Shown piece by piece: positions 11,366 through 45,369 of a DNA stretch of 64,000 nt. Location: positions 1,757,334 to 1,821,333 of the forward strand of contig MU004185.1 in NCBI GenBank assembly GCA_010093605.1. The letters run 5' to 3'. The stretch comes from Lophium mytilinum. Taxonomy: Eukaryota. Below the pieces are notes generated by a model. The model ran no database searches. It had not been told where the DNA came from and saw nothing but the letters and a program-made list of their open reading frames with translations. Position 1 is the first letter of the stretch. Each line of letters starts with the position of its first letter. A program made the translations under genes and the position numbers.

Positions 11366-12832
11366 TCAAGGGTGGGGCCCAATCACCATGTGTGCCCTAC
11401 GAGATGCCTCTTTTACTTCATTTGCAACCATATCTGCCAATTCGTTGCCAAGAAGGCCCTTGTGGCCGGGGATCCAGCGTAGTTCGACCTTGTACCCGGC
11501 TTGTTCAATCGCGTACGTGTAGGTGGCAATGTTCTTGACTATCGGCCATATTGGCACGACGGGCCCAAATGGCCATTCTTTGATGAGGTTGAGGGCCGTT
11601 GCGCAATCTGAGTATATCACAACCACTTTGGGTCCCACGTTTCCGGTCGTTTTGTACCTTTTGGTGGCGTAAATGAGAGTTTTGGCGACGTTCAAGGCCT
11701 CCATGATAGCCCAGGCTTCGGCATCGGTAGACCTCATGCCCCGCTCCAAAGTGATAGCTTTTGTGACCCAAGGTGTCGGGATCAGGGCCATGTTGTTCTT
11801 GTACGCGACAGCAGCGCCAGCCGCGCCCCACTTATTCACCGAAGCGTCGGTCCAAAGCACGTACCGATCTGCAGCTTGGGTGTCATAGTGGCCGGTGTAT
11901 TCCAGGTCGGCGTGACTGCTGGCTCTCTCATAGTTGTCCTTGAAGACGCTGCCTGTGAACCCATGGTCGAGGTAGTGTGCCACGGCGTTGGTCTCGATGT
12001 CCACTATTTCGTTATCCCCAAAGCCCTGAAGCAACTTGTGCCAATCGATCCATTGCTGTGAATGTATCATATTCTTCTTGAAGTCTTTTGCGCTCACGAA
12101 GTTTTTACGCTGCTCTGTTCGGTACTTCTGAAATGCTTCCAACCAAGTGACTCTGTCCGCTTGCGTCTGTGGCACGTAAGCCCGCAGCACCTGGAGGTCA
12201 TCCAGCATTCGTTGTTCCTCGTGGACCCCGATTTTTCGGTTTCTGCCACGTTCTGCTTCCGTCCTGAGTATCTCAAGCACTCGGTCTTGCGCGACTTCTT
12301 CAGCGCGCGTACGAGGAACGACTGCGCGGACTGCCTCGAGCTTGGGTAGTGTGATGTCAGCCTCCCAGTAGCGGTGTTGTTTCTTCAAAAGTTCAGCGTT
12401 CATCGCCAGATACGCATGCGCCCGCTGCTCTTTCTCTTCAAGTGTTCCTTTGATTTGCACCGCCTCTTGTTCCTCCCGTTCTTCCAGGCCCTCTTCCCAC
12501 GCTCCGGGTCCTTCTTCCGTCCACAGACTCGCCGCATGTTCCTGCTCTTCCTGCTCTTTCAACCGCCGCTCCCTCCGCGTTGTGACTTCTTCGACAATAA
12601 GGGCCAACCACTCCTCTCTTGATAGTACTTCTTGCGCTTGTATGAACATATCCAACAGGGTAGGGTCCGCTGCGTCGGTGCTCGACTGCCCCTCGGCGTC
12701 CTTCCGCTTCTTCTCCTGCGACGCGGCGTCTCCAATCCGTACCAACAGCTCGTCCCACGCGGCGTCAGTCTCCGGCACGTTGCGTGCCGCCTCATCGAGC
12801 ACATCGGCGAAAGAAGGAGCGACAGCGTCCAT
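11366..12832 (-). CDS. Stand-alone RNase H1-type domain protein (non-LTR-retroelement-like RNase H) with an acidic/coiled-coil N-terminus
   Basis: C-terminal WTDAS...STDAEAWAI...IYSDC...WIPGHKG..GNELAD carries all D-E-D-D residues plus the conserved His. First ATG is at 12832 (MDAVAPSF); the ORF track extends to a TTG at 13024. No RT motifs seen. Confidence 0.85.
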   Translation of the reverse strand: MDAVAPSFADVLDEAARNVPETDAAWDELLVRIGDAASQEKKRKDAEGQSSTDAADPTLLDMFIQAQEVLSREEWLALIVEEVTTRRERRLKEQEEQEHAASLWTEEGPGAWEEGLEEREEQEAVQIKGTLEEKEQRAHAYLAMNAELLKKQHRYWEADITLPKLEAVRAVVPRTRAEEVAQDRVLEILRTEAERGRNRKIGVHEEQRMLDDLQVLRAYVPQTQADRVTWLEAFQKYRTEQRKNFVSAKDFKKNMIHSQQWIDWHKLLQGFGDNEIVDIETNAVAHYLDHGFTGSVFKDNYERASSHADLEYTGHYDTQAADRYVLWTDASVNKWGAAGAAVAYKNNMALIPTPWVTKAITLERGMRSTDAEAWAIMEALNVAKTLIYATKRYKTTGNVGPKVVVIYSDCATALNLIKEWPFGPVVPIWPIVKNIATYTYAIEQAGYKVELRWIPGHKGLLGNELADMVANEVKEASRRAHMVIGPHP

Positions 12833-13134
12833 GGCGGGGTGACGGAAAGCCTGCCAAGCATGGTTAGTACGTGCATTCCGGCGACGAGGTGTCGATGGAC
12901 GCGTTCCAGTAGTGTCAGTCTTGTTGGTTAGTGAGGAGCAAGCGTAGTAGCTGATGCGAGAACTTGGTCTTGTTCTGCTGTTGGTGGTGATGAGGTTGGA
13001 GGCTGAAGGTTTGTTTTGGTGCAAGCGAGACGTGATGTGGGGCAGGCGCGACGCGAACGCGTGGTCATAGCTTTACCGCCAAAAGCGGCTTAGCGCGAAA
13101 TCAGGCTCTGTTGAGCCTGAAGTTGGAAGTGTGC

Positions 13135-31978: not shown

Positions 31979-33421
31979 CACGCGGGGGACAAAAAAAGCT
32001 GGACACCAAGCGATGCGCTAAGCACAGCCCCCCACTAAATTTTGGCCTGCCCCTGATGCCTCACAGCACCACCATAATACATTCACTTATTTAACATGGC
32101 CTAAAAGCGAGCTAACGCTTCTAATAATAATTAGGAGACACCTATAAAAGCTAAGGTTTAAGAAGCTATTAAATTCCTTAAAGTAAAAGGTATAAAAGGC
32201 TAGAAAGAGAAGGTTTTTAGGTATTTTAAAGTCTCCTATTCTAAGGGCTATAAGATACTCTTAGGTTACCTAAGAAGGCACTATAATAACCTAGAAGTAG
32301 AAGAGAATTAAGGCTAGTACTAGCTAATAGGCTCTAAGGAGTTAAAGACTATAGAAGGCCTTCTAAAAGAGTATAGTTTCTTAGTAAGAGTATTTACCTA
32401 GAAGTAGCTAGCCTATAAGGCCGGCATTATAGATACCTATAGAGATTCTATTTCTAGCTAAACTATCTAGTATATAATAGGGAGAATAGACTATTATAAG
32501 TATATTACTTATAAGAAAGAATAGATTAATTAGCGCACGGCTAATTACTAGAAGAAGTATATAAAGGTAATACTTAAAAGGTATTCTAAGCTAGAGAATT
32601 AGTAGAAGGTTTAATTCTCTAATAAGGTATATTAGAGTATTAGGCTATAAGGTATATTTACCTTTTCTTCTTCTTCTTCTAATTCTAATGCCCTTAGGCA
32701 AGCTTTAAATTATTAGAAAACTAGATAAATACTACTATTTAGATTGCATTTAAGAGATAGATAATTAGTAGGTAGAGAATACTTAAAAATAGCTATATTC
32801 TTAGGCTACTGCCGGCTATAACTTTATATCTCTATTATATTTCTATAATATTCTAAGTAATTTAAATAGAAAGATAATACTTATTAGGTATATTAATATT
32901 CTTAATACTATAGTTAAGCTATAGCTAGATGCTAAGGAGAACTTTATACTTAAAGAGGATAATAATAGAGGGTATAGTATAGATAAGAAGAATATTATTT
33001 AGACCTAGAAAGAATAGTATAGCTTAAAGTACTATTTTAACTACTATAATTTACTAGATCTAGCCTCTATTAAGAACTACTAGTAGCCTCTAAAGTAGTA
33101 TATTAAGAAGTTCCCTTACTAGGATAAGAATACTATAAGAGAATTAGCCTAAAAAGAATAGAATAAAGTAAGAAGAGACTATAAGTTTATTAATAAGCGG
33201 GTGGATAGTATACTAGAAAGGCTATAGATAGTACTTAATAGGGATAGTTAGCTAATAGAATACTAGCTAGTAAATGTATTTTAATCCCCTATTAATTCCT
33301 AAGTAATACTAGCGTGCTCTAGGTATTTAAAAGTGGTGGTGGCCTTATATAAATTAATGGTGGTGGCCATTTAGTGGTCGCGGCGTAATTTCGGTGTCCA
33401 GCTTTTTTTGTCCCCCGCGTG
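31979..33421 (+). mobile_element. RIP-inactivated IS630/Tc1-mariner-type DNA transposon (D,D37E), 1443 bp
   Basis: Perfect 29-bp TIRs CACGCGGGGGACAAAAAAAGCTGGACACC (31979-32007 and 33393-33421), flanked on both sides by GTCCC. The interior is AT-rich, TpA-rich and CpA/TpG-depleted. Confidence 0.93.
32096..33266 (+). pseudogene. Transposase relic with many RIP-type stop codons
   Basis: Reverting C>T/G>A by eye gives ...RFSDEVHW...FVLEEDGD.GHG...SPDLAPIENCWQ..., with 37 codons between the second D and the E. Probable intron at ~32652-32697. Confidence 0.85.
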
Positions 33422-34040
33422 GTCCCTTACTCTAGCCCTTCCGAAGTCAAGGCATCCATTGCCTTCAACCCCAATACAAGGCCCCTATACATGCCAATAT
33501 TTTCAGTCTCCTGTAGGCTGTGTTAACTACGCATTTCAGCACAGCCCGCTCTTCGATGAGAAATGATCGCCTTCGGAGGCTCTACTTCCAGGCAACTTCC
33601 TTATGGTGAAGAAGACGTTCTCGCGACTGATATAACGTTCCCAGCCCTCGCAGATCTTGTAAGGAAGTTTTATCAATGCTAGACATTCAAGATAAAAGAG
33701 CAACCTATCTACACCTATTGAAGTCTTTCTTACTGCCGCAATAAGGTAGGCTTGATCCCTCTGCTCTGCGGGGTTGCGGGGAAAAGGCTAGACGGCGTCT
33801 TCGCAGCCATTCTGGCTGCGCCTGCAGGTCAGGTTCATGCAGCGTGGTATTGCTGAGAGAGCTCATCGGCGATTCCGATTACTGCAGCCTAAGTCTCTTG
33901 GCGAAAAGGGCAGCGGGGCAGCGCAATAGAGCCGTCACTTCTAGTGCTTTTGGTATGTGCTGGTTAAAACCGTGATATAGTAGAAAGCCTTCTTGGTCAT
34001 ATCTTGCTCTTCCTCTGAACTTGTCGGTAAAATAGCTTCC

Positions 34041-37000
34041 ATGGAATCCGCTTCCAAGGCACGCGAGCAGGATGACGATGAACAGCCACAGAAGTTATCT
34101 GCAATCAGAACTGAAACAGCGTCAGACCATTCCGATCGTGGACCTCCTCAGTCGCTTTTTCATCATCGGGAAAGTAACGACTTGCCAGCTTCACGGTACC
34201 AACACGGGTACTTGACTTCGCAGCAGTCGCTTTTTGTTTCGGGCGAATGCAATGAGGAGCAGCTTAATGATCTATTAGGATCTAGAAATGAGAAGGACCA
34301 ACTTAGAAATGAGAGGGACCAACTTGAAGATGAGAGGGACCAACTGGAGGAGCGACAACGAGCGGAGCGACAGGAACGAAAAGCTGAACGTACACACTAT
34401 ATTCGCAGTATGATGGCAACTGTGTGGGTCCCACGGGCACTATCACCATCGCCTAATTCTCCCCTTTCTGCGTGCGACGAAGAGGAGCTTGCTGTTGCAT
34501 CTACAAAAGGTGAACGTCGGCGCTCCTTGGACGCAGAATGGGACAATTTTTCCAGTAGCTCAGAGCAATACGAAGAAGATCGTCTAATGAAGAGGTCTGA
34601 GATAGTAGCGTCCTATGATCAACAACAGGCCGTCGATCCATTGTTGACCCAGGAAAGGCGAGCACGTAAGGATATTCAATACACTGTCAGAAAACGTCTG
34701 GCACCTTTCCTTCCATATGTGGACAAGTCTCAATCCCCTCAACCATCCTCAGGCTACCTTGTTGACCGTCATTGGATAGACTTGGACCTCACGATCAAAA
34801 GCTGGCTGAATCAATGCGACACGACCCACCATGGCCATTGTACAAAGGCTGAAGGTGAACACGACGGATTCGATAACAAAAGTCCGATTTGGTTGATCGA
34901 TGTTGTTTCTTGGTGTCTTGTACGGGCCACGCCGGACAAAAGATACTTCGCGCTGAGCTATGTCTGGGGCCAAGCGAAAGGTTCGTGTGCAACTTCAGCA
35001 AACCTGGAAAGCCTTCAGCAGCGAAATGCGTTTAAACAAGACGAACTGGATATTCCGAAGCTGATTATCGACGTTATGAAACTCATAGATCTACTCGGTG
35101 AACGTTATCTGTGGTGTGACAGATACTGTAGGTATCACTGCGTGCATTCGATTAGAACTTGCTGACCCGCTCTATAAAAGGTATCGTCCAAGACCGAACA
35201 ACCGAAAAGATGCTGCAGTTAGATGCTATGGCACACATCTACAAAAACTCGTACGCTACGATCGTTGCATCTTCCAGGAAAAGTACTGCGGAAGGTCTCT
35301 ACGGGATTCGAGACGTTACACGCCCTCGCAGAAAGGGGAAAATTAGTCTAGGGGGTCCTTACACACCCAACAGGTCTAGTGCTCGAAGGTACTGGGACGC
35401 CACTGATTCATGGGCTGTTCCTGTGCATACAGACACCTCCGAAGGAGATTCATCAAACGACGAACACGAAGAAGCATCATCTGTGCGACGCTCTCCGGGC
35501 CGCGCCATGTCCCCGAAGAATATAAGCGACGAACCCGTTGAGCGTACTGCTAAGGAATCAAAGCTGAGCGAGTCTCATTGTTTTCTGAAGGTACATTCAA
35601 GAGGGACACGAACAAACACGCCCGAATCTGAAGAAGGCGTGAAAGAAGCGGCGGAGAGATTGAACACCGAAGACGGAACTCCACTAGTGGCCAAACTGAC
35701 AGAACCAACTACGGCTCAACCGCAGGCAGAAGAAGCTGAAGTTGATTACTTCGTCAGATTGGCAAGCCTATTGATGAATAGTGACTGGGGCTCTCGGGCA
35801 TGGACGTTTCAGGAGTCCCTTTTCGCGCGCCGAAAGATTGTGTTTCAAGATGAGATGGTGAATTGGGAGTGCCACTGTATCTCATGCTATGAAGGCCAAG
35901 CGACTTTTGGAAGCGATGATACTTCGACGTGCCTGAGCCCATGGTCTCCCATGTCCAGCGGCAACACATGGCCAGATGCTTACCGTTTCGCAAGACTGAT
36001 ATCGCTTTACAATCAGCGAGACCTGACTTTCCCAGAGGATGCCCACAATGCCTTTCTGGGGACGTTATCGGATCTATGTCAAACATTTTCCGGGGGCTTC
36101 GTTAGTGGACTGCCAGTAATGTTCTTCGACGCGGCTTTGATTTGGCAACCATACGAGCCCGCCATTCGTCGACGGAATACAGGAAACCGACCAGACAGTG
36201 AGCATATACATATACCCAGTTGGTCTTGGATAGGGTGGAAAGGCGACATTGATTCTAAAAGCCTACGGAGTAGCTATGACTACATGAGGAGAAACCCTGA
36301 TGAGTTCTTGACAGAAGAAGGGGATGAGTGGGAGCCTACGTCATGGCACACCGAAAGTACGGTCAAGTGGTCGTATAAGCTGAGGCGTGATTGCGAGAGC
36401 AACGAAATTTCTCCTTCCGGACACAGATTTCGAGACGTAACGTCACTCAATGAGGAAGACGCTACCAAACCTCCCGAAGGATGGAAGGCTCACAAAGACC
36501 AGGATCGAAAGCGAGACTACTACACTCATGTTTCCCGATACGAAGCAAGAGTTCTGGTATCCTATACCTCTTCGTGGTGAGCAAAAGGACGAATCTTGCC
36601 CTATATTTGCGCCATTCTTATGCGGCATGACGCGTAGCGCGCTCTTAAAGGTCGGGCGTACTTCCCGCAATTTTGAGGTGTCTCACTGTCTCTATGTTAA
36701 GCTTCTTGACAAATATGATCATTCCGTTGGATTTCTTCGCGTTAATAGGCCGGCGTCACTAGAATATGAATATGGGCCATCAGTTCGGGAAATCGAGGAG
36801 TACCCAGATGAAGGGAGCGAGATTGAGGTGATCGAACTGTCCGCAGGGTCCGTTAAAAGACAGAAGACAGAGGAGGTGAGCTTTGATGAGTGGCCAGTGT
36901 CTAACCGGGACTCCAGGGAGCATGGAACACTTTATGAGTTCTACAACGTGATGATGGTCAAGAGGCATGAGTGGTACGCAACTAGGGTTGCCGTCGGTCG

Positions 37001-37061
37001 TGTGGAGAAAGCTGTTTGGGAGCGTGTATCTCGAGAGCGCACCAGTATAGTTCTCGGATAA
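34041..37061 (+). CDS. HET-domain protein (HET-1 here); apparent frameshift near 36535, possibly a pseudogene
   Basis: WLIDV...YFALSYVWG...LGERYLWCDRYC|IVQD...MAHIYKNSYATIVA...SDWGSRAWTFQE...PSWSWIGW. Intron 35128-35180. The C-terminus (EFWYPIP...FYNVM..RVAVGRV) is in another frame. Confidence 0.85.
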
Positions 37062-37452
37062 GATATCTAGAAGGTCTCCTTTAGCACCCAATAAAGCGTC
37101 ACCACTCAAGGCACGTGATTTGCCCGGGTACATGAGAGTACGTTTCTCATTACGATTTAAACTTCTAAGGAAACGACGATAAGGGCTCGGCCATCCTCCC
37201 TACTGGAATAGTGATGTTTTTTATTACTTAGAAGCGCGCTTCCGCCGCCACGTGACGTTGAATCTCTGAGGCTCTGCCACTGCATTGTAAAGTTCCCCGC
37301 TATCTCATCCTCAACTCGCTCTTTTGGATGTTCTTCCAAGAACTTACGGGCCAGCACAGTGATTGTTCTTTGGCTACTTGACGTGTGCATGTCTTAGTAC
37401 GTTTATGATTATATGATTTAATGATTTAGAAGCTCTCTAACCTTTCTCCCTC

Positions 37453-39946
37453 ATGCGGCTTTTACGGCTTGAAGACTTCAGCCTCGTTGAAGTCGTTGGC
37501 AAGAACATTCCGCGCTATGCTGTTCTTTCACATACCTGGGGCCCAGATCAGGAGGAGGTCACCTATAAAGACATAGTGAAAGGCACAGGCAAGAATAAAG
37601 CTGGCTATGCAAAGATCCAATTTTGCGAAAGGCAAGCATCCTTGGACAGCCTTCAATACATCTGGGTGGACACTTGCTGTAGGCATCACTGCTTGCATTT
37701 CATTAGAGCTTACTGACCCACTCTATAATAGGTATAAACAAATCAAGCAGCGCAGAGCTTTCGGAAGCCATTAACTCCATGTTCAGTTGGTATCAAAGGG
37801 CGGAAAGATGCTACGTATATCTCTCAGATGTTAGACGTGATAACTCTGGGGAAAGCGATCCGTTCCCTCGGCATATATGGACGTCGGCCTTTCGAAACAG
37901 CAGATGGTTTACTCGGGGTTGGACGCTCCAAGAGCTTCTTGCTCCCACAATGATCGGCTTCTTTTCGACGGACGGCCACCTTCTTGGAAATAGGGCTTCA
38001 CTTCTACAAGAGATCCACGAGGCCACAGAGATTTCTATTGAAGCTCTTTTGGGAAGAAAATTATTATCTCATTTCAGCGTCGATGAGCGAATGTTATGGG
38101 CAAAGGGCCGCGAGACGAAACGCGAAGAGGACGCAGCATATTCTCTACTAGGCATCTTCGATATTCATATGCCTCTCATCTATGGAGAAGGACGTAACAA
38201 GGCGTTGAGAAGGCTTCGTAGAGAGATCAGAGAGTCCTTAAAGGATACTTCGCCCACTCGATCAATAGCGAACGTCTCTGAGCATGAAAACGCACCAAAA
38301 CGTGAAGAAGGCACGGCTTCCTTACGATTATCATATTCACACTCTGACTTGGTCGTAGTAGGTCTTTCAACCCCTGACCAGGAAACGGCACGAGACCGAA
38401 AAACACAATTCCAAAAAACACGCTCCACTATGAGGGCCAGCCTCCGCGCAAATTCGGGCGCCAACACTCTGGTGCTAGAGGCAAGTCCCACCACAGAAGC
38501 AAATAACAATGAACGTTATGCTACTCCGCAGGCAGACACTGCCCTTGTGGACCGCGACGCCGAGAATGAACGTCTGCAGCGTGAATTAAGCGCTGCAAAA
38601 GAACAGATCACGGCGCTTCAGAGCCAAATCCTTGTGGCCAACCAAGGTGAAAGCTTCCTTACGGTACGCGACGACGACTATTTCGAGAGTGCCTGCCAGC
38701 GGCTATATTCGCAGGCGCAGGAGTGGGTAGCACGTTTCTCAAAAGCCTCTGACAATACCCGCTGCCGGTTGTCCGCCAATATTCACGACGAAAAGGTTCA
38801 GGATCGATTGGACAATGCTATCCTTGATGGCTCTGATGTAGATATCCTGCTCGCTGATCGTGTGGAACGACGAAATGTCTTCTTGTCCGTCGTGATGGCC
38901 ATGATCTGGGAATACGTCTTTACTAGATACCTTTTTGGTCTAGATAGGGAACAAAGGCAAAAGTTGAAATCCTTGGAAAAGACCTTGCAAGAAACGGGTA
39001 TGTAGTGTGCGATGTTTCCAAGGTCACACTTGAGCTAAGCATGAATTCTGTAGCACCCGCCGGAGCCGTTGCGCAGTGGCGTGCGATCACCCTTACGTTT
39101 CTATCTAAGCGCGCGGCTTTCCAACAGCAGTGCGCTCAAGACACCGAGGCCGTGCTGCATGCGATCGATTCCACGGTAACTCGCGTCCTACCAGTATCGT
39201 CGGTGAACGTGTACCAATTTCAGCGTGCTCTTCGCGATATGCTCCGGTCGGCTGTCTCTCTATCCATCGAGATGCGCACGCAAAGAGCAGAGTACACCAT
39301 GCTCCCGCCGCTTCAACCTGAGTATGATGCCAACGGAGATCTGGTTGGGAAAGTCCTCTTCAACGCAAGTCTCATGAGTGGAGGGTCAGGCGAAACCACC
39401 TCCGACAACTACGAGCTGGAACGGAAAGGAACGGTGGTTAAAATGGTCCTCTTCCCACTTGTTGTAAAACGAGGGGATGACAACAGCGAAGAGATAGTGA
39501 TCTATCCAGCCCAAGTGCAGCTGGTTGCCAGCAACACTGTTGCTCAAGTTGACGCAAAGAAACGTACTCAAGATCGACAGAATTTGATGGATGCCGGCAA
39601 CACTGTTGCTCAAGTTGACGCAAAACGTGCTCAAGATCGACAGAATTTGATGATGGTTGCAGAAAGAAAGGTCAAGGCTCGGATGCTTAGTATGGACGAT
39701 CAGGTCTTTAAAGAGACGGGGAAGATGTCACCAGCCATGATGGAGGATTGGGAAAATAAAGCGCGTGCGAAAGTAGCAGCTGATAGGGAGGCCCGCATAG
39801 TGAGCTATGGCAGGGTGCATGTGCGTGGTGGAAAGATTATGGACCAGTCAGAGATTGATGCTGTCGCTGCCGCGAGGATACAACCCACTTTGGACGAGAT
39901 TAACGATGCCACCGAGAAGCAGAGGGCGAGGGGACGAGGAAATTAG
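37453..39946 (+). CDS. Chimeric HET-domain protein (HET-2 here) fused to apparent host-gene fragments
   Basis: HET-E-type N-terminus: YAVLSHTWG...WVDTCC|INKSSSAELSEAINSMFSWY...SRWFTRGWTLQELLAP...AYSLLGIFDIHMPLIYGEG. Introns 37679-37731 and 38998-39053. A non-NACHT C-terminus follows. Confidence 0.85.
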
Positions 39947-40960
39947 GCTCGATAATGAAGAGAAGAAGCGCTAGACCCGCACTGAGAAGGAAGGATCTGC
40001 AGGTCTGAAGGCTGAAGAAAAGCGTGTCAAGGGTAAGTTAGGGTTAGGGTTATTGCGTGTTATTGGTAAATATCCTGACTAACAACAGCAGAACGCCAAA
40101 TATTTCATATGAAATCAGTCCAGATTTCGACGTGACGATAAGCAAGTCGGGTTTCGAGGGGAAGGGGGGTAGGTTTATTCATTTGGCAATGTTCAGGCGA
40201 ATTCTTATTTTCAGTGTAAATGTAAGTAAGTTGGTCTGCAGGCGGGTAGGGCTGACTAAATAGCGCATATAGCTCTAGAGTAGTATATTCTTGAAGTACT
40301 CTGCAACTTGGGAACAGCTTCAAACTCGGAAGTAAAGTTCGTGGAGCCGGGGTCGGTGAGATACAGGAGGGGAACGATGGTGTGATATCTCGGAAAAGAA
40401 ACACTTCACCGTATTGGTATCTCACTGCCAAATCATCACCAAATCATGCCTACATCACATCTTAACGAAACCACTCATAAGTAATCAGTATCAGTCTCAT
40501 TCTTTCCACTGCCTCAACCCCTCCCAATCCACCCTAAGGATCTCACCATCGGATATCGTGTAGCACAAGAAACGCCGCATCCCAATCCGAAGTCCGCCAT
40601 CCGAAAAGGACCATGATGCCACCCGACCCATAAGGGTGCTAAAAACAGCCAACGCCATCGCTCAATGCAGCAAGAGTGAATGCCCTTTCAGAATAATGCC
40701 TAATGGAGGCATGGAAAGAGGTAAAACCAGAAATGATGATCGGTCTTTCGATCTTTTGAAGCCCGAAATAGAGTAGCTTAAGTCTTCCGTTCGCAAAGTA
40801 AAGCAAGAACACAACAGGTGAGAAGAAGAAGAGAAACAGTAAAGAAATTTTTTGTGATGTACATGAAAGTGAAGCAAACATCGAGACTCGGTTCTGGCTC
40901 ATGGGCCAGAAATCCTCGGGCCGTGAGTTGAGATGTATCGATATCCCGCGTCGAAAACCA

Positions 40961-43900
40961 CTACGGAGCCGGCGGTACTGAAGGCGCTGAAGCTCGGGGC
41001 CAATTTAACTTAAGCTTGAGTATCTTCGAAGGCCGTGGGGCTGCTGGGGCTGCCCTCGCAACGGCTGCTACTGAGTCGGTGCTCGCTTGGCGCTTGAGTG
41101 GCCGATGGTCGTCGTCGACGTCCTCGCTGCTTCGCTTTCTACTAGAGCCATTTCCGCTCGCAGCCGGCGAGAGCAGCGACGCAGCTGCTGCTAGAGATGG
41201 AGACTGGCGCTTGATATGTGCGTGGTCATGATGCCCTGCTACGGCTAGCACAGGTATGGAGTGTGCGGCGGCAGAGGGTGCTGCGGCAGTGGTGCGAGCA
41301 ATTTTCAAAGAGGCCGGTTTCGGCGCCTTCGAGACTATAGTCGCCACCTGCTGTTGCGGTACCTTGAGCCTAACGATACGGGACTTGGGGGCCCGAATCT
41401 TCTTTAAAGGAGCAGCCGGTGCTGGCAGTGCCGGTGGAGGCGAGAAGGCAGTGGAAGCCTGAGATGGTAAGGTTTGGGAGGAAGACGCCGACCGATGGAT
41501 GGGAGGCCGGACGTCGAGGGATTTAGGCGTTCCTGAAGGCTTGACTGCTGGTGCGGGATTGCCGTTGGTGACGAGATGTATCTTTGGAAGAGGTGGCTGT
41601 TTCTCAACAGCTTGCGCTTGAACATGGGCCACGATGGCCGCTTTGTTGCCCATCGTCAGCGTGAGGGTGCGCTTCGGCATAGCAGGCCTAGGACCGGTAG
41701 CTTTAGGAGCAGACTTATCCCAAGCTGGCTTTGGCATCGGCTTGGTACGAATCTTCTCTGTCTGAGAGAACTTCATCACGCCTCGTCCCCTATGCTGAGT
41801 TCTCCAATAACGTGGGTAACGCAGTACGATGGGAAGCGAGTCCTCAGCCTCGTACAGAAGGCCGCAGATCTCCAAAAGCTCCTCCATATCTCTGGCGCTT
41901 GTAGTTTGAGATCGGAGTGCCTCTTCTAACGCTTTCTTCAAAGTCTTATCCTCGGATATCTCCTTGCTCAGCGCGGCAAGAGCCCCGTTTACACTATTCT
42001 TTCGAGCAAGGTCGGCCTGGCGTTCAGTCGGACCGTCGTCCTGTTCGATATGGAGGATATCATCGCTCTGATCCGCCTGGGTGTCATCCTTCAATTCTCC
42101 CAAAGCTATCTGCCCAAGTGCATAGCCGAAGATACGGAGAAGTCGTCCCCTGAAGTAAGGGGAAGGGTCTGATTGCAAACTGTAGATCATGAAACTCAAC
42201 ACTGCCGGTTTTTTTATCATGCCCAGCTCCACAAGACAGTTCCACGCCTTCACTCGCACGTTGTCGGCGTTACCTAATTTGGTGTACTTCATGAACTCCA
42301 AGGGTTGGCGCGGAATGACTCTATTCTGCATGAGCGTCAAAAGGCACTCGAGAGCGGTAGTTGTGATGACGTTGTGGAACGATGATATCCACTCGTCGCT
42401 GCGTTGTAGACGACGTATTTCGGAAATAGCCGTCTGCTGGAATACGAGTTCGTCCGTGTTGTCGACGTCATCATCGTCGTCAACCCAGCTGCGTTGATTC
42501 GTAGTTGTCAACGTCTGGGCAAGACACGACAACAAAATGGCAACGTAGTGACTGTCGGAGAAGGCATTGTCCCCGTTGTCATTGTATGTCAAAAGGTTGG
42601 AAATGAAGTTTTTCACCCGCATTGTCGCCTTGCCATTAGTGTCGCGTATCCTCGCAACTGCCTTCGGGATCGCGCATCGGATGAGATATAGGCTACGATC
42701 GGAGAAGTCGTTTGGACGTGTGATGTTGGTCCCGGGTCTACAGAACAATGCCTTGAACGCTTTCTCGAGATGATCCAAGCCGATCCAATGGATATCTGCT
42801 CTCGCACAATTCGCTAGCGCGTCCGCTGCAATTGTGCGAATACCGTGGAAATATCGTCCATCCATCAAGGTTCGCACCAGGATGCTCGACAGTAACTCAT
42901 GACCGGGCTTCGAGGAAAGCCATTGGATGGACTCAAGCTGAGCGATTATATCCTTGTCCTGCTGCAACTGTGAGACGTACATGTACGAAGGCATGTTGAC
43001 GGCGCTCTTGCATATCCACTCGAAATCGGCATCAATCCGGTACCATTCGTAAGACTCTTGACTCATCTTATCTTCCTCATCTTTTGACCAATCGTAGAGC
43101 TCCCACTCACGAACCTCCTCTCCAGACTGGAGAACATCGCCGAGGCAGTACAGGAGGACATCATCCTGCGCATCTCCGACATCGATTCCTTGTGCGGCTG
43201 CAGCTCGCTCTTTTTGCCGGCGACTTCGCTTTAGGCGCTTGTACTTAGTGTTATATGGAATATCCACTTTGGTCTTCCGCGACTGGATGTCGACAATATG
43301 CTCATATGGCGTGCCATCTGCCTCGTGTATGCGAATGGTCATAGGCCCTGTGAAATGATGTTGCGTTGTTGCTGCATAAACGTGATGCTTGTCTTCCTTG
43401 ACCTCCCTCAGAAAATTTGAGGAATCTAAAACAAGCTGGTCGTCGCCAAAGTTTCCCATCGAAGTGCCTTGAATTTGGTCAATATGCAGTTCAATCATCA
43501 TCTTCTTTTTGTTGAATTTGGCAGTGCAGTGAAACGAGGGACACCCGCCACCCTCCACCCATTGTGCGAAGAACTTGTCTAACCGCTGGTGGCCGACTTT
43601 CTCGCATATGCGGTAGAATTCTTCAGTCGATATTGCAGAGTTCGGTAAAGTAGAGGCCTTGGCATTCAGAAGCATCCGCCAAAAGCAACGATCTACACCG
43701 TTCTTGCCACTCTGCTTGACGAGCCGTTGATGAAGAATCGACAATACCAACGGTGCTTTGAGTTCCATGAACTCCATTTCGCCAGGGTCCAGAGCAAGGT
43801 ATGGTCCGAGGTCTTTGATAGACGGTCGCTTGACGTCCGTTGCAACAATTTTGTCCGCCATAAGCTTCAGACGGTATTTGTGGTCGTTCTTTCCAAATAG

Positions 43901-45369
43901 TTCTCGCAAGTATAAATCGGTTATGAACCAGGCTCCTCCAACGATGATCCACCAGTCGGTAGGAGTCTGTGGAATGACGTATACGCCTATCCATTGACTA
44001 GCAAGGCCGTATACCAGCATGCGAGTGACATAGTTGATTGGGTCTAGTTCATTTTTCGGGTAGAGCAGTCGAGTGCTGCAAATTGACATCGAAGCCGATA
44101 TCGTGACATCGGTAGCCAAGTCATCGACAAAGCAGACCTTGTAGCTCGAAAAGGGATATGCCAAAAACTTCTCGGTGAAGAAGTCCGCAGCCTGTGCGAG
44201 CATCTCAGCGCTGTTCAGCACTTCCTCGGCTCGGCCTGGGAGACAAAAGGCGTGTATTCTGGAGGCGTTGGATCCTAGCCTCTCATCCACGTCACTGTCT
44301 CGAAATTCGGACAGATCGACATGCTCAAAGGGACCAACTGCGAAAGCAATGTGCTGAGGTAGAACCGGGGTTTCGCAGATGAACGAGACAGTCTTCCAGC
44401 TTGCGTTCTGTGTGTCGACGATCTTTGCAGGTTAGATCAACATCTGAGTTGTCAACAATGAAAACTTACATCATCTGTCATATCGCCCGAGCAGATCACA
44501 GACATCTCAAGCAACTTTTCCTCTTCGTCAAGACCCATAAAGTCATCGTCATCGGAGCCCATGACACTGTCGACCTTACGAGCTCCGTTAGAGAGCTCAT
44601 CGCCGCTGGTCTTGCTAAGGTCATCATGGCTGGCAACACCATTCGTAAGGGCACGAGGTTTGCGCAAAGCGTCTCCTAAAGTTCGAGGGCACCGGATGGA
44701 GAAGTCCCAAGTACATCTCGTCAAGGAGTCGTCCAGGCATGGGAACAAACAAGAAGCGATGCCCGAATAAGGAGAGTTCCGAGTGAATAGATGCGGGTAT
44801 TTCCCGTCTCCAATCTGAGCACCAGCAAATGCTAGTCCGTCTCTGAACTCATCGATATTGTATTCAACTACCACCTCCAGGGTATCAAATCCAGAAGGCT
44901 CAGCTGAGGAATGCTCCAAGGCCACATCTGCGAAAGCACTATGGCGTGTCACCATTCCAATATCCGCAAGGTCATCGCGGGCATCCGGTTGCGCAGGCTT
45001 AACATTCACGCCCTTCGGTAGAGTGATCACAAGCTCATTTTCTGTCCCATTCTTATGCGCATCAATCCGGGACTTGGGGAAATGATGCTGGTATATACCC
45101 GTTGTCAGATAGAGGTGGAGGCGTCTGTACAGGTCGCTGTAGGTCGAGGAAGCACTTCTGCCTTCAACGGTGACGGAAGTGGTCTTCAGTTGTCGGCAGT
45201 CCAGCCGTATGGTCCTGAGGTCTTTAACCGTGGGCTGGATAGTGAGTGCCGTTTTCCCTTTGATCAACCGCGACGCAAAGTCTATCTCGAGTCTGACGAC
45301 CTGGTGTAGGACCGTGAATCCCAGGTCTGGTCGGGCGGCGAGCACCTCAGGCTCCGTGTCCTCAGCCAT
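40961..45369 (-). CDS. TAF2: Transcription initiation factor TFIID subunit 2
   Basis: M1-aminopeptidase-like fold plus GPMTIRIHEADGTPYEHIV, DIPYNTKYKRLKR, EWYRIDADFEWI and MYVSQLQQDKDIIAQ. Intron at ~44427-44469. Confidence 0.95.

Follow-up and report, generated by a model that had tools for sequence, protein, structure and literature searches.

At 37453-39946 on the + strand of the 64-kb window (the whole stretch of Lophium mytilinum DNA analysed, 64,000 nucleotides) lies a single open reading frame whose spliced product has 794 aa, or 778 aa if a third intron seen in RNA is also removed. The gene is a chimera that joins, in one reading frame, a HET domain, about 400 aa from the C-terminus of Lah and an internal fragment of Eis1. 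An earlier note on this DNA had proposed that a HET domain is fused here to pieces of two other genes; the Pfam matches, the alignments and the open frame establish that the chimera is real. No second copy of any part of the gene was found within the 64-kb window. Its features, all on the + strand, are listed below.

37317-37452, +, 5′ untranslated part; the RNA-like contig starts at 37317
37453, +, start codon ATG of the gene model
37453-37678, +, exon 1, aa 1-75 plus one base, with the first HET blocks YAVLSHTWG and YIWVDTCC
37679-37731, +, intron 1, 53 nt, GT..AG with a CTGAC branch site; skipped in the RNA-like contig (37678>37732)
37732-38225, +, remainder of the HET domain, reaching about aa 240 and containing WFTRGWTLQELLAP; the public protein P0124 carries PF06985
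38250-38540, +, start of the Lah-derived part: SPTR junction motif, then a linker and coiled coil that are degenerate and shortened internally
38311-38358, +, third intron, 48 nt, in frame, GC..AG with a CTGAC branch; joint in the RNA-like contig 38308>38357, 2 letters ambiguous
38541-38997, +, first half of the LahC core (aa 346-498), comprising the last part of the coiled coil and the conserved helical domain
38877-38933, +, VFLSVVMAMIWEYVFTRYL, aa 458-476, the 19-residue stretch with the protein's highest hydrophobicity (Kyte-Doolittle mean 1.43)
38998-39053, +, intron 2, 56 nt, GTATGT..TAG; skipped in the RNA-like contig
39054-39528, +, LahC core, second half, aa 499-657, ending in ...IYPAQVQLVAS
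39529-40085, +, 557-nt insertion, part of an Eis1 exon plus intron, with CAGCA at both ends; absent in a related organism's contig
39533-39661, +, first ~22 Eis1 codons duplicated in tandem, in copies of 66 nt and 63 nt
39599-39931, +, in-frame Eis1 segment, P0025 aa 448-559 at 87% identity, Pfam Eisosome1 positions 1-100 of 126
39930, +, one base more than in the resident Eis1 copy, shifting the frame into the tail RGRGN; missing in paralogue contigs of three runs
39933-40034, +, out-of-frame Eis1 relic, P0025 aa 560-593 at 91% identity
39944-39946, +, stop codon, created by the frameshift at 39930
40035-40085, +, Eis1 intron relic, GTAAGT ... CCTGACTAACAACAG; the paralogue's RNA is spliced after 40033 and its DNA is intron-like after 40038

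The frame stays open across the HET-Lah boundary (37707-39005) and again across the Lah-Eis1 boundary (38948-39946), and the fusion is also seen in an RNA-like contig of 2269 nt that covers 37317-39742 with 0 differences and three intron skips. This one spliced contig crosses both the HET-Lah part and the Lah-Eis1 junction, although a spanning contig alone is not proof of one transcript since it may bridge two overlapping ones. We infer that the run behind it is RNA because its contigs skip GT..AG introns here and in two neighbouring genes (35127>35181 and 44422>44470); no listed run is recorded as RNA. A second HET gene lies directly upstream of the gene at 37453, on an RNA contig of its own that ends at 37102, so that its transcript and the contig starting at 37317 are not merged. 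Both introns of the earlier gene model are GT..AG and are skipped in this contig, and the third, at 38311-38358, whose removal costs the linker 16 aa, had been missed. The open reading frame of the homologue P0121 ends exactly at the position of the 38998-39053 intron. Toward the 3′ end, the spanning contig stops at 39742, and the RNA contigs listed for differing sites between 39748 and 39993 show paralogue letters only; DNA contigs span both ends of the 39529-40085 insertion.

The HET domain is intact. Its exon-1 and exon-2 pieces score 19.7 and 22.4 bits against PF06985, under the cut-off of 22.5, because intron 1 splits the domain; P0124, the public protein of the same sequence, carries PF06985 in its precomputed annotation, and the HET domains of the fused relatives match at 42-49 bits. 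The translation contains three blocks, YAVLSHTWG, YIWVDTCCINK and WFTRGWTLQELLAP, corresponding to the HET block definitions (LSHxWG, WxDxxCI and W..RGWT.QE). Identity over the domain is 80% to the Mytilinidion ortholog (P0125) and about 66% to fusions from Helotiales, and in a quick tree of 51 rows its branch measures 0.27 against 0.07 for the Mytilinidion ortholog, which could reflect relaxed constraint. As the earlier note had seen, neither NACHT nor WD40 follows: no exon gave a Pfam match at E≤0.1 to NACHT, NB-ARC, WD40, ANK or TPR. The gene shares an N-terminal HET domain with three conserved blocks with the HET-domain incompatibility proteins (the NLRs HET-E and HET-D of Podospora; TOL, PIN-C and HET-6 of Neurospora), and differs from them in having no NACHT, WD40, ANK, TPR or LRR and in having a piece of a septal-pore structural protein as its C-terminal partner.

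Lah homology begins immediately after the HET domain, at about aa 249 (the alignment with P0060 starts at aa 240), and the motif SPTRPP stands at the junction in P0121, in the Mytilinidion protein P0125 and in Lah C-terminal proteins alike. In the search with exon 3, 119 of the 120 proteins listed match aa ~346-656 with their C-terminal ~310 aa, at 49-66% identity, and several proteins among the matches listed bear the name ‘involucrin repeat protein’. The resemblance to the C-terminus of such a protein, named in the earlier note, holds, with the correction that it starts at aa ~249 and not with the coiled coil. Twelve giant proteins (3966-7112 aa) match aa 346-656 within about 110-380 aa of their C-termini, one of them over the first half only and the other 11 with 58-66% identity over ~290-325 aa. 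These full-length giants come from relatives, in searches that covered proteins of up to 2000-2105 aa or cluster representatives. Among the listed pieces of the DNA runs, no second copy of the Lah part was present at ≥90%. Of the intact donor genes presumed by the earlier note, Eis1 (P0025) was found in the same genome and Lah was found as giants in relatives.

According to an excerpt of PMC8227032, the A. fumigatus ‘involucrin repeat protein’ AFUA_2G08060 is the Woronin-body tether Lah, and PMC5345055 describes LahC288 as a fragment that targets the septal-pore rim and requires its hydrophobic segment. Judged by sequence, the copied core is the equivalent of these 288 aa that send A. fumigatus Lah to the pore rim. 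Its most hydrophobic stretch, aa 458-476, is the probable counterpart of the A. fumigatus ‘transmembrane’ segment, with which we matched it by the conserved SVVM and by how far it lies from the C-terminus. The AlphaFold model of P0123 sets the ‘transmembrane’ helix within a helical domain that is predicted with confidence (block pLDDT about 94), and a Foldseek search of this model against the PDB returned no match at E≤0.001. The likeness to Lah/Leashin (A. fumigatus AFUA_2G08060; N. crassa LAH-1/LAH-2) concerns the giants' C-terminal region, including the hydrophobic helix and the domain behind it, the part described as sufficient for pore targeting in A. fumigatus in PMC5345055. The Lophium fusion differs from Lah in having neither the giant repeat region nor the N-terminal Woronin-body-binding part, the HET domain standing at the N-terminus instead. 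Lah's final ~44 residues are also absent, and the coiled coil is shortened, most of it having been lost internally relative to P0121.

Although divergent, the Lah piece bears marks of constraint. Among the 134 columns that are at least 95% conserved in 125 Lah rows, 116 are still intact in the Lophium copy; it deviates at the other 18, compared to at most 11 in any true Lah row (n=125). In a careful LahC tree of 31 rows, in which the Periconia protein P0029 is not included, the end branches of fused LahC measure 0.72 (Lophium), 0.35 and 0.20 and the median for true Lah is 0.098, so that the rate of the Lophium copy is about seven times that of typical Lah tips. Compared to the contig of the related organism, 1229 coding nt carry one 3-nt indel, whereas 875 nt of non-coding flank carry 8 single-base indels. 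Since the junction motif is common to the Mytilinidion ortholog and P0121, the fusion outlived speciation. These comparisons, together with the other fusions described below, indicate that capture of the Lah piece is old and recurrent and that the piece is under constraint.

A survey for similar captures, of the kind anticipated by the earlier note, found HET and LahC together in 4 of 492 fetched proteins: P0241 from Stipitochalara longipes (866 aa) and P0384 from Rhexocercosporidium sp. (899 aa), both Helotiales, and P0121 and P0245 from metagenomes. The Helotiales fusions likewise consist of HET followed by the Lah C-terminus with a nearly identical end point. They differ from the Lophium gene in retaining about 650 aa of Lah, in having a LahC that groups with Leotiomycete Lah, in lacking the Eis1 piece and in having HET domains that do not group with the Lophium HET. 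The breakpoint in the lineage of P0121 and Lophium lies at about 535 aa of Lah, of which ~400 aa are left in Lophium. In the careful tree of 31 rows, every fusion's LahC nests among the Lah of its own class, and AU tests, on groupings chosen after inspection of the tree, reject one clade of the Lophium and Helotiales fusions (p-AU 0.004) and one clade of all five fusions (p 2e-5). The HET-domain tree, where the HET domains of Helotiales and Lophium likewise form no group, is by itself too weak as proof of separate origins (quick tree, 51 rows; 7 of 48 inner branches starred). From this LahC tree and these tests, HET-Lah fusions appear to have formed separately in another fungal class (Helotiales, Leotiomycetes); gene conversion from resident Lah could imitate independent origins.

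The Eis1 piece has a different history. The earlier note's recognition of an Eisosome1 domain proved correct: PF12757 matches with 104.6 bits (E 5.5e-30, cut-off 25), over profile positions 1-100 of 126 only, and aa 680-790 are 86.6% identical to the L. mytilinum ‘Eisosome protein 1’ (P0025, residues 448-559 of 839). This resident gene is located on a different scaffold, and the DNA runs contain a second DNA copy at similar depth. Unlike the resident protein, the chimera contains 146 of its 839 residues (448-593), with the first 22 duplicated, the end of the Pfam model missing and the last 34 out of frame with a stop; the homology runs 102 nt beyond the stop in a different frame, where a TAG at 39972-39974 replaces a Gln codon of the paralogue. 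The insertion is about 93.5% identical in nucleotides to the resident Eis1 gene, with 20 substitutions and 1 indel in 306 nt. The in-frame stretch 39718-39929 shows 9 non-synonymous versus 4 synonymous nucleotide differences. Of 10 C>T changes, 8 fall in CpA against a background of 22 of 64 C's (34%; binomial p 0.004; 306 nt compared, 4 changes opposite). The related organism's contig joins 39528>40086, with 5 letters fitting either side. This absence is read from one contig at depth 2 and 90% likeness, and a possible alternative is that the relative's lineage lost the piece by a deletion running exactly from one 5-nt repeat to the other. Joining 39528 to 40086 in Lophium, as in the relative, yields a 58-aa tail dissimilar to the Lah tail; because three 1-nt indels relative to the relative fall within it, this ancestral tail was probably not conserved coding sequence. 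Taken together, these features make the Eis1 piece appear to be a recent insertion in decay, with near-neutral substitutions and a possible RIP-like bias, and the neutral exon shuffling that the earlier note had entertained as its alternative fits this piece.

We favour an explanation, to which we give a probability of roughly 0.58, in which a Lah anchor places a HET effector at the septal pore and Eis1 is a neutral passenger. One transcribed gene of L. mytilinum would bear both the HET domain and a Lah copy made of a shortened coiled coil, a conserved hydrophobic helix and a conserved C-terminal domain. By extension from A. fumigatus Lah, the Lah-derived module would locate the HET domain at the septal pore, the coiled coil possibly setting the protein next to, or pairing with, resident Lah. 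The putative HET activity could then work locally at the pore in incompatibility, damage or defence responses. Eis1 would represent a separate, much younger event, in which 557 nt were copied into the 3′ end of the open reading frame between identical 5-nt sequences, presumably followed by the 66-nt tandem duplication, the 1-nt frameshift, the stop codon and the CpA>TpA changes. This passenger is most likely neutral and would have replaced the earlier C-terminal tail.

Three other explanations have to be weighed against septal anchoring of a HET effector. In the public annotation, the locus is divided into P0124 (248 aa) and P0123 (486 aa, corresponding to M309-N794), 54 nt apart. Taken literally, this describes two genes, a HET protein made by way of a 125-nt frame-shifting intron (38234-38358, by our reading of the P0124 C-terminus) and a Lah/Eis1-like protein starting at Met309, and the fusion would be only apparent. 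The two proteins are indeed deposited separately, and a contig of RNA that covers two genes need not stem from a single transcript. We nevertheless regard this account as highly improbable given that merely 54 nt separate stop and start, that the RNA contig has the in-frame 48-nt skip and not the 125-nt one, that Lah homology begins upstream of Met309, at aa ~249, and that P0121, P0241, P0384 and P0245 hold both parts within single proteins. The chimera might otherwise be a neutral by-product, young or decaying and functionless, transcribed behind the HET promoter with both foreign pieces as passengers. HET genes are many and turn over fast (16802 matches at E≤0.001 in the database search), with another one directly upstream, and the long branches of HET (0.27) and LahC (0.72), the 18 deviations at near-invariant Lah columns, a coiled coil that is mostly gone when set against P0121, the tolerance of a 557-nt insertion and the replaced tail are what such a by-product would show. 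That its 2.3-kb frame stays open is difficult to reconcile with this idea, as are the 116 of 134 near-invariant columns intact despite 0.72 changes per column, the single in-frame indel relative to the relative when the flank has 8 frame-breaking ones, the junction motif common to the Mytilinidion ortholog and P0121, and the independent fusions of Helotiales; a functionless gene is, in our opinion, distinctly unlikely.

The remaining explanation is an integrated decoy or guard, in which the Lah module, and perhaps Eis1, would be a bait that a parasite, a mycovirus or an incompatible partner binds, thereby triggering HET death. The bait would mimic a cortical or septal protein that such an attacker or partner targets. 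In favour of this, HET occupies the place after which a sensor usually comes, and NACHT and repeat domains are absent. Formation of the same type of fusion at least twice argues for selection on the architecture, fused LahC is faster than true Lah as arms-race baits might be, and part of the text of bioRxiv 10.1101/2025.01.22.633611 reports N. crassa lah mutants as less fit against a bacterium. In parts of PMC5658179, decoy domains in fungal NLRs are raised as a possibility only. The gene resembles plant NLRs with integrated decoys in that a death or signalling domain is joined to a copied part of a host protein; however, it has no nucleotide-binding switch domain, and for its copied part the role of a target is conjectural. 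The NLR-like decoy of the earlier note cannot apply in the strict sense because the NOD domain is absent, and the logic of plant NLRs with integrated domains has no obvious counterpart without this switch module. Furthermore, no ligand is known, and the Eis1 piece is frameshifted, with near-neutral and RIP-like changes, and missing in a close relative. The copied Lah module corresponds to a proven localisation signal, which makes its recurrence explicable without any bait role. We therefore judge a decoy unlikely, and targeting at least as likely, since the Lah piece matches a known septal-pore targeting module. The pair of sensors suggested in the earlier note must be revised accordingly: the pieces are not equivalent, Eis1 being apparently a decaying insertion and the Lah piece a probable targeting module.

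HET is the commonest death domain of fungal incompatibility and NLR-like genes, and its cellular site and mode of action are poorly known. Its junction to a module that goes to the septal-pore rim would provide a concrete, testable link between HET death and Woronin-body sealing, and this kind of joining has apparently occurred more than once. Pfam has no LahC model: P0367 has no Pfam match at all, and the HET-Lah fusions match HET only. Together with the splitting of the locus in the public annotation, this makes such fusions invisible to domain surveys. Full-text literature searches returned no publication combining the HET domain with leashin, or the HET domain with septal pore and Woronin, and the excerpts of the literature on heterokaryon incompatibility and leashin mention no HET-Lah fusion. 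More speculatively, and with more doubt than confidence, HET-LahC proteins might constitute an undescribed non-NLR class of death or immunity proteins at the septal pore, put together independently in Dothideomycetes and in Leotiomycetes through capture of Lah's pore-anchoring end and acting as pore executioners or guards of Lah. If this is true, HET-LahC would tie cell death or allorecognition physically to the compartment-sealing machinery. Independently of its host gene, the Eis1 insertion offers a tidy natural case of what looks like templated insertion of a gene fragment, early in its decay. Within its intron relic, the telomere-like candidate TTAGGGTTAGGG at 40038-40049 proved weak (one match, with at least one at ≤1 mismatch in 7 of 100 shuffles too). 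By eye, TTAGGGTTAGGG looks like letters added relative to the paralogue's intron.

The gene at 37453-39946 (+) is built from three forward open reading frames (37441-37716, 37707-39005 and 38948-39946), which two short introns with good signals join into one frame of 2385 nt encoding 794 aa. Removal of an additional 48-nt intron gives a protein of 778 aa.

Introns of the gene
37679-37731, + strand: intron 1, GTAGGC ... CTGAC ... TAG
38998-39053, + strand: intron 2, GTATGT ... TAG
38311-38358, + strand: additional intron of 48 nt, GC..AG with a CTGAC branch, in frame, skipped in X3 record 18 (2 ambiguous letters)

Since intron 1 cuts the HET domain, Pfam matches it in two parts, scoring 19.7 and 22.4 bits, and confirms the Eisosome1 segment that the earlier note had recognized by eye (104.6 bits, E 5.5e-30, profile positions 1-100 of 126). 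The same note had stated that HET is not followed by NACHT or WD40; indeed, the gene has no Pfam match to NACHT, NB-ARC, WD40, ANK or TPR at E<=0.1. None of the gene's parts recurs elsewhere in the 64-kb window. The window matches two NCBI proteins of Lophium mytilinum encoded on a single 2.44-Mb contig. One, P0123 (486 aa, “hypothetical protein”), is 100% identical to aa 309-794. The other, P0124 (248 aa, “HET-domain-containing protein”), consists of aa 1-242 and six other residues, an ending that we read as a 125-nt intron (38234-38358) shifting the frame. Public annotation therefore has two genes here, 54 nt apart.

Contigs of four public runs (X1-X4) were compared with window 33000-45000. 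X3 behaves like RNA and was taken as such: GT..AG introns are spliced out of its contigs in the gene upstream (35127>35181) and in a TAF2-like gene (44422>44470). X3 record 18 (2269 nt, 0 differences) spans 37317-39742 and skips 37679-37731, 38998-39053 (this second joint is reported 1 base to the left; a cut one place right fits equally) and a third stretch of 48 nt, so that one contig runs through both the annotated boundary between two genes and the Lah-Eis1 junction. The expected single mRNA is thus supported across the HET-Lah and Lah-Eis1 junctions, but an RNA contig may bridge overlapping transcripts, and record 18 stops at 39742; at the differing sites in 39748-39993, X3 RNA contigs show only the letters of a paralogue. 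On the question of misassembly, contigs of DNA runs X1 and X2 (one sample, possibly the assembly source) span both Eis1 junctions: X2 record 10 (33137-39742) crosses the 5′ junction and an X1/X2 contig (39997-45000) the 3′ junction.

The earlier note had assigned the middle segment to the C-terminus of an “involucrin repeat” protein, and database searches agree. Among the 120 listed exon 3 matches, 119 align to aa ~346-656 with 49-66% identity, the aligned part being in every case close to the matching protein's C-terminus, and an exhaustive search added giants (3966-7112 aa) matching 110-380 aa before their ends. A passage of PMC8227032 describes one such “involucrin repeat protein”, AFUA_2G08060, as the tether of Woronin bodies to septal pores (Lah, or leashin). 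Leonhardt et al. 2017 (PMC5345055) showed that the final 288 residues of A. fumigatus Lah are enough to take GFP to the septal-pore rim, that the hydrophobic segment is required (V5303E/V5304E abolishes targeting), and that the coiled coil upstream is dispensable for targeting. The most hydrophobic 19-mer of the window protein, aa 458-476, lies within the family-conserved ...FLSVVMAMIWEYVF..., at about the same distance from the family C-terminus as the A. fumigatus segment. Pfam has no model for this LahC region: the giant Lah protein P0367 is without any match, and the fusions match HET alone. For the Lah part, AlphaFold (P0123 modelled with 64 relatives, mean pLDDT 77.7, pTM 0.63) predicts a confident helical domain and a small sheet, with no PDB match at E<=0.001. 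Residues 452-472, the counterpart of the segment termed transmembrane in A. fumigatus Lah, are modelled as one helix of this domain (block pLDDT about 94). P0001 (695 aa, metagenome) carries LahC twice in tandem (aa 101-390 and 410-676, 47-49% identity to that of the window) with neither HET nor a long repeat region, another non-Lah use of the module.

HET-Lah fusions recur. At least four further proteins align to both HET and LahC among 492 fetched in all searches (the best 120-150 of thousands of matches): P0241 (Stipitochalara longipes, 866 aa), P0384 (Rhexocercosporidium sp., 899 aa), and P0121 and P0245, both from metagenomes. In P0121 (583 aa), Lah sequence 70% identical to Pleosporales Lah follows HET from aa ~261 (...GSPRSPTRPPSMRKRQSMQ...), and its open reading frame ends at the exact place of the window intron 38998-39053. 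P0125 from Mytilinidion resinicola, orthologous to the HET part (HET domain 80% identical), reads ...SLKDSSPTRPPAAF... where the window reads ...SLKDTSPTRSIANV... Comparison of the three places the start of the Lah-derived part at about aa 249; the HET-Lah junction is common to the window, Mytilinidion and P0121, and most of the coiled coil still present in P0121 is gone from the window copy. The protein P0023 begins at a ...SPTRPPS.RKRQSMQ... motif, which the consensus of 64 “involucrin repeat” proteins of 520-550 aa has near its start and which coincides with the start of the Dothideomycete HET fusion. The motif may thus mark an exon boundary or an internal Lah start, in line with the report in bioRxiv 10.1101/2025.01.22.633611 of several lah transcripts in N. 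crassa.

In a careful LahC tree (31 rows, 318 columns), true Lah proteins mostly grouped by class. The window LahC fell within the Dothideomycete clade (100/98) on an end branch of 0.72 (median 0.098), the two Helotiales fusions beside Leotiomycete Lah (91/90), and P0121 among Pleosporales Lah (97/92). AU tests on groups chosen after the tree was known rejected a single clade of the window and the Helotiales fusions (p 0.004) or of all five fusions (p 2e-5), and did not reject one of the window and P0121 (p 0.32). Breakpoints also differ, the Helotiales fusions carrying about 650 aa of Lah versus about 535 aa in the P0121/window lineage. In a quick HET tree (51 rows, weakly resolved), the Helotiales and Lophium HET domains were not joined. 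We read trees, AU tests and breakpoints together as pointing to at least two independent captures. The alternative is a single old fusion with gene conversion from the resident Lah.

Constraint was gauged on 134 columns at least 95% conserved among 125 true Lah rows, which themselves keep 123-134 (median 133). P0241 keeps 127, P0384 118 and the window 116, making the window copy the most deviant. Nevertheless, 87% of these columns are retained at about 68% overall identity, so that changes avoid Lah-conserved sites. Compared with a contig of a related organism (X4 record 25, depth 2), 38300-39528 (1229 nt) shows 93 differences and one 3-nt insertion as its only indel, the non-coding 40086-40960 (875 nt) eight 1-nt indels, and the TAF2-like coding part none. 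Neutral shuffling, the other option in the earlier note, suits the Eis1 piece, with its dN/dS near 0.7, frameshift and stop; the Lah part, with 116/134 columns kept, looks constrained. In the reading we favour, the Lah-derived module would place HET at the septal pore, where it would act, and the Eis1 piece would be neutral; alternatively, the Lah copy may be bait rather than address, or the Lophium gene may be in the process of being lost by drift. A full-text search of openly available papers found none that names the HET domain together with leashin, or together with septal pore and Woronin; heterokaryon incompatibility and leashin are mentioned apart in sections of PMC10023807 and of the N. 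crassa preprint. Passages of Uehling et al. 2017 (PMC5658179) note HET-TIR similarity and give decoy-like domains in fungal NLRs as personal observation only.

The anticipated Eis1 donor exists: P0025, the resident Eis1 (839 aa) on another scaffold, aligns with 39599-39931 (87% identity) and, one base shifted, with 39933-40034 (91%), with a stop where P0025 has Gln, and the homology ends at GTAAGT. In the DNA runs, 39718-40023 also occurs in another version of comparable depth, which has 20 substitutions and lacks base 39930. In X3 this paralogue version is deeper (498 vs 62) and continues spliced behind 40033; in DNA it goes on past 40038 into intron-like sequence that ends in CCTGACT, the same as in the window, and the Eis1 piece was therefore copied from genomic DNA, intron included. 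In the related organism's contig, 39528 is followed directly by 40086 and these 557 nt are missing; five letters, CAGCA, fit either side. Within the piece, which is decaying, the first 22 Eis1 codons are tandemly duplicated (66-nt and 63-nt copies, almost identical), and in-frame 39718-39929 differs from the resident copy by 4 synonymous and 9 non-synonymous nucleotide changes (7 codons), the dN/dS resting on a rough site count. At ten of the 20 differences the window has T for a C of the resident copy, and 8 of these 10 lie in CpA context compared to 22/64 C's overall (p 0.004). Repeat-induced point mutation would be expected to give such a bias; 4 changes in the 306 nt compared run the other way. 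A telomere-like TTAGGGTTAGGG at 40038-40049 (+), in the intron relic of the insertion, seems by eye to be extra relative to the resident intron; the chance test is weak, 7/100 shuffles likewise yielding a match with <=1 mismatch.

Features around the gene
33426-37102, + strand: larger HET gene, HET in ORFs 33984-35165 and 35156-36580
40009-44470, - strand: TAF2-like gene, Pfam TAF2 Ig-like domain and TAF2 TPR repeats
11366-13072, - strand: 568-aa ORF with RNase H domain (E 4.6e-9), possibly a retroelement remnant

The larger HET gene lies directly upstream, so that two HET genes stand head to tail; its one 53-nt intron (35128-35180) is skipped in RNA-like X3 record 17, and in X3 it has a separate contig ending at 37102. 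The TAF2-like gene is convergent with the HET-Lah gene, and its RNA-like contig extends to 40009, inside the Eis1 insertion.
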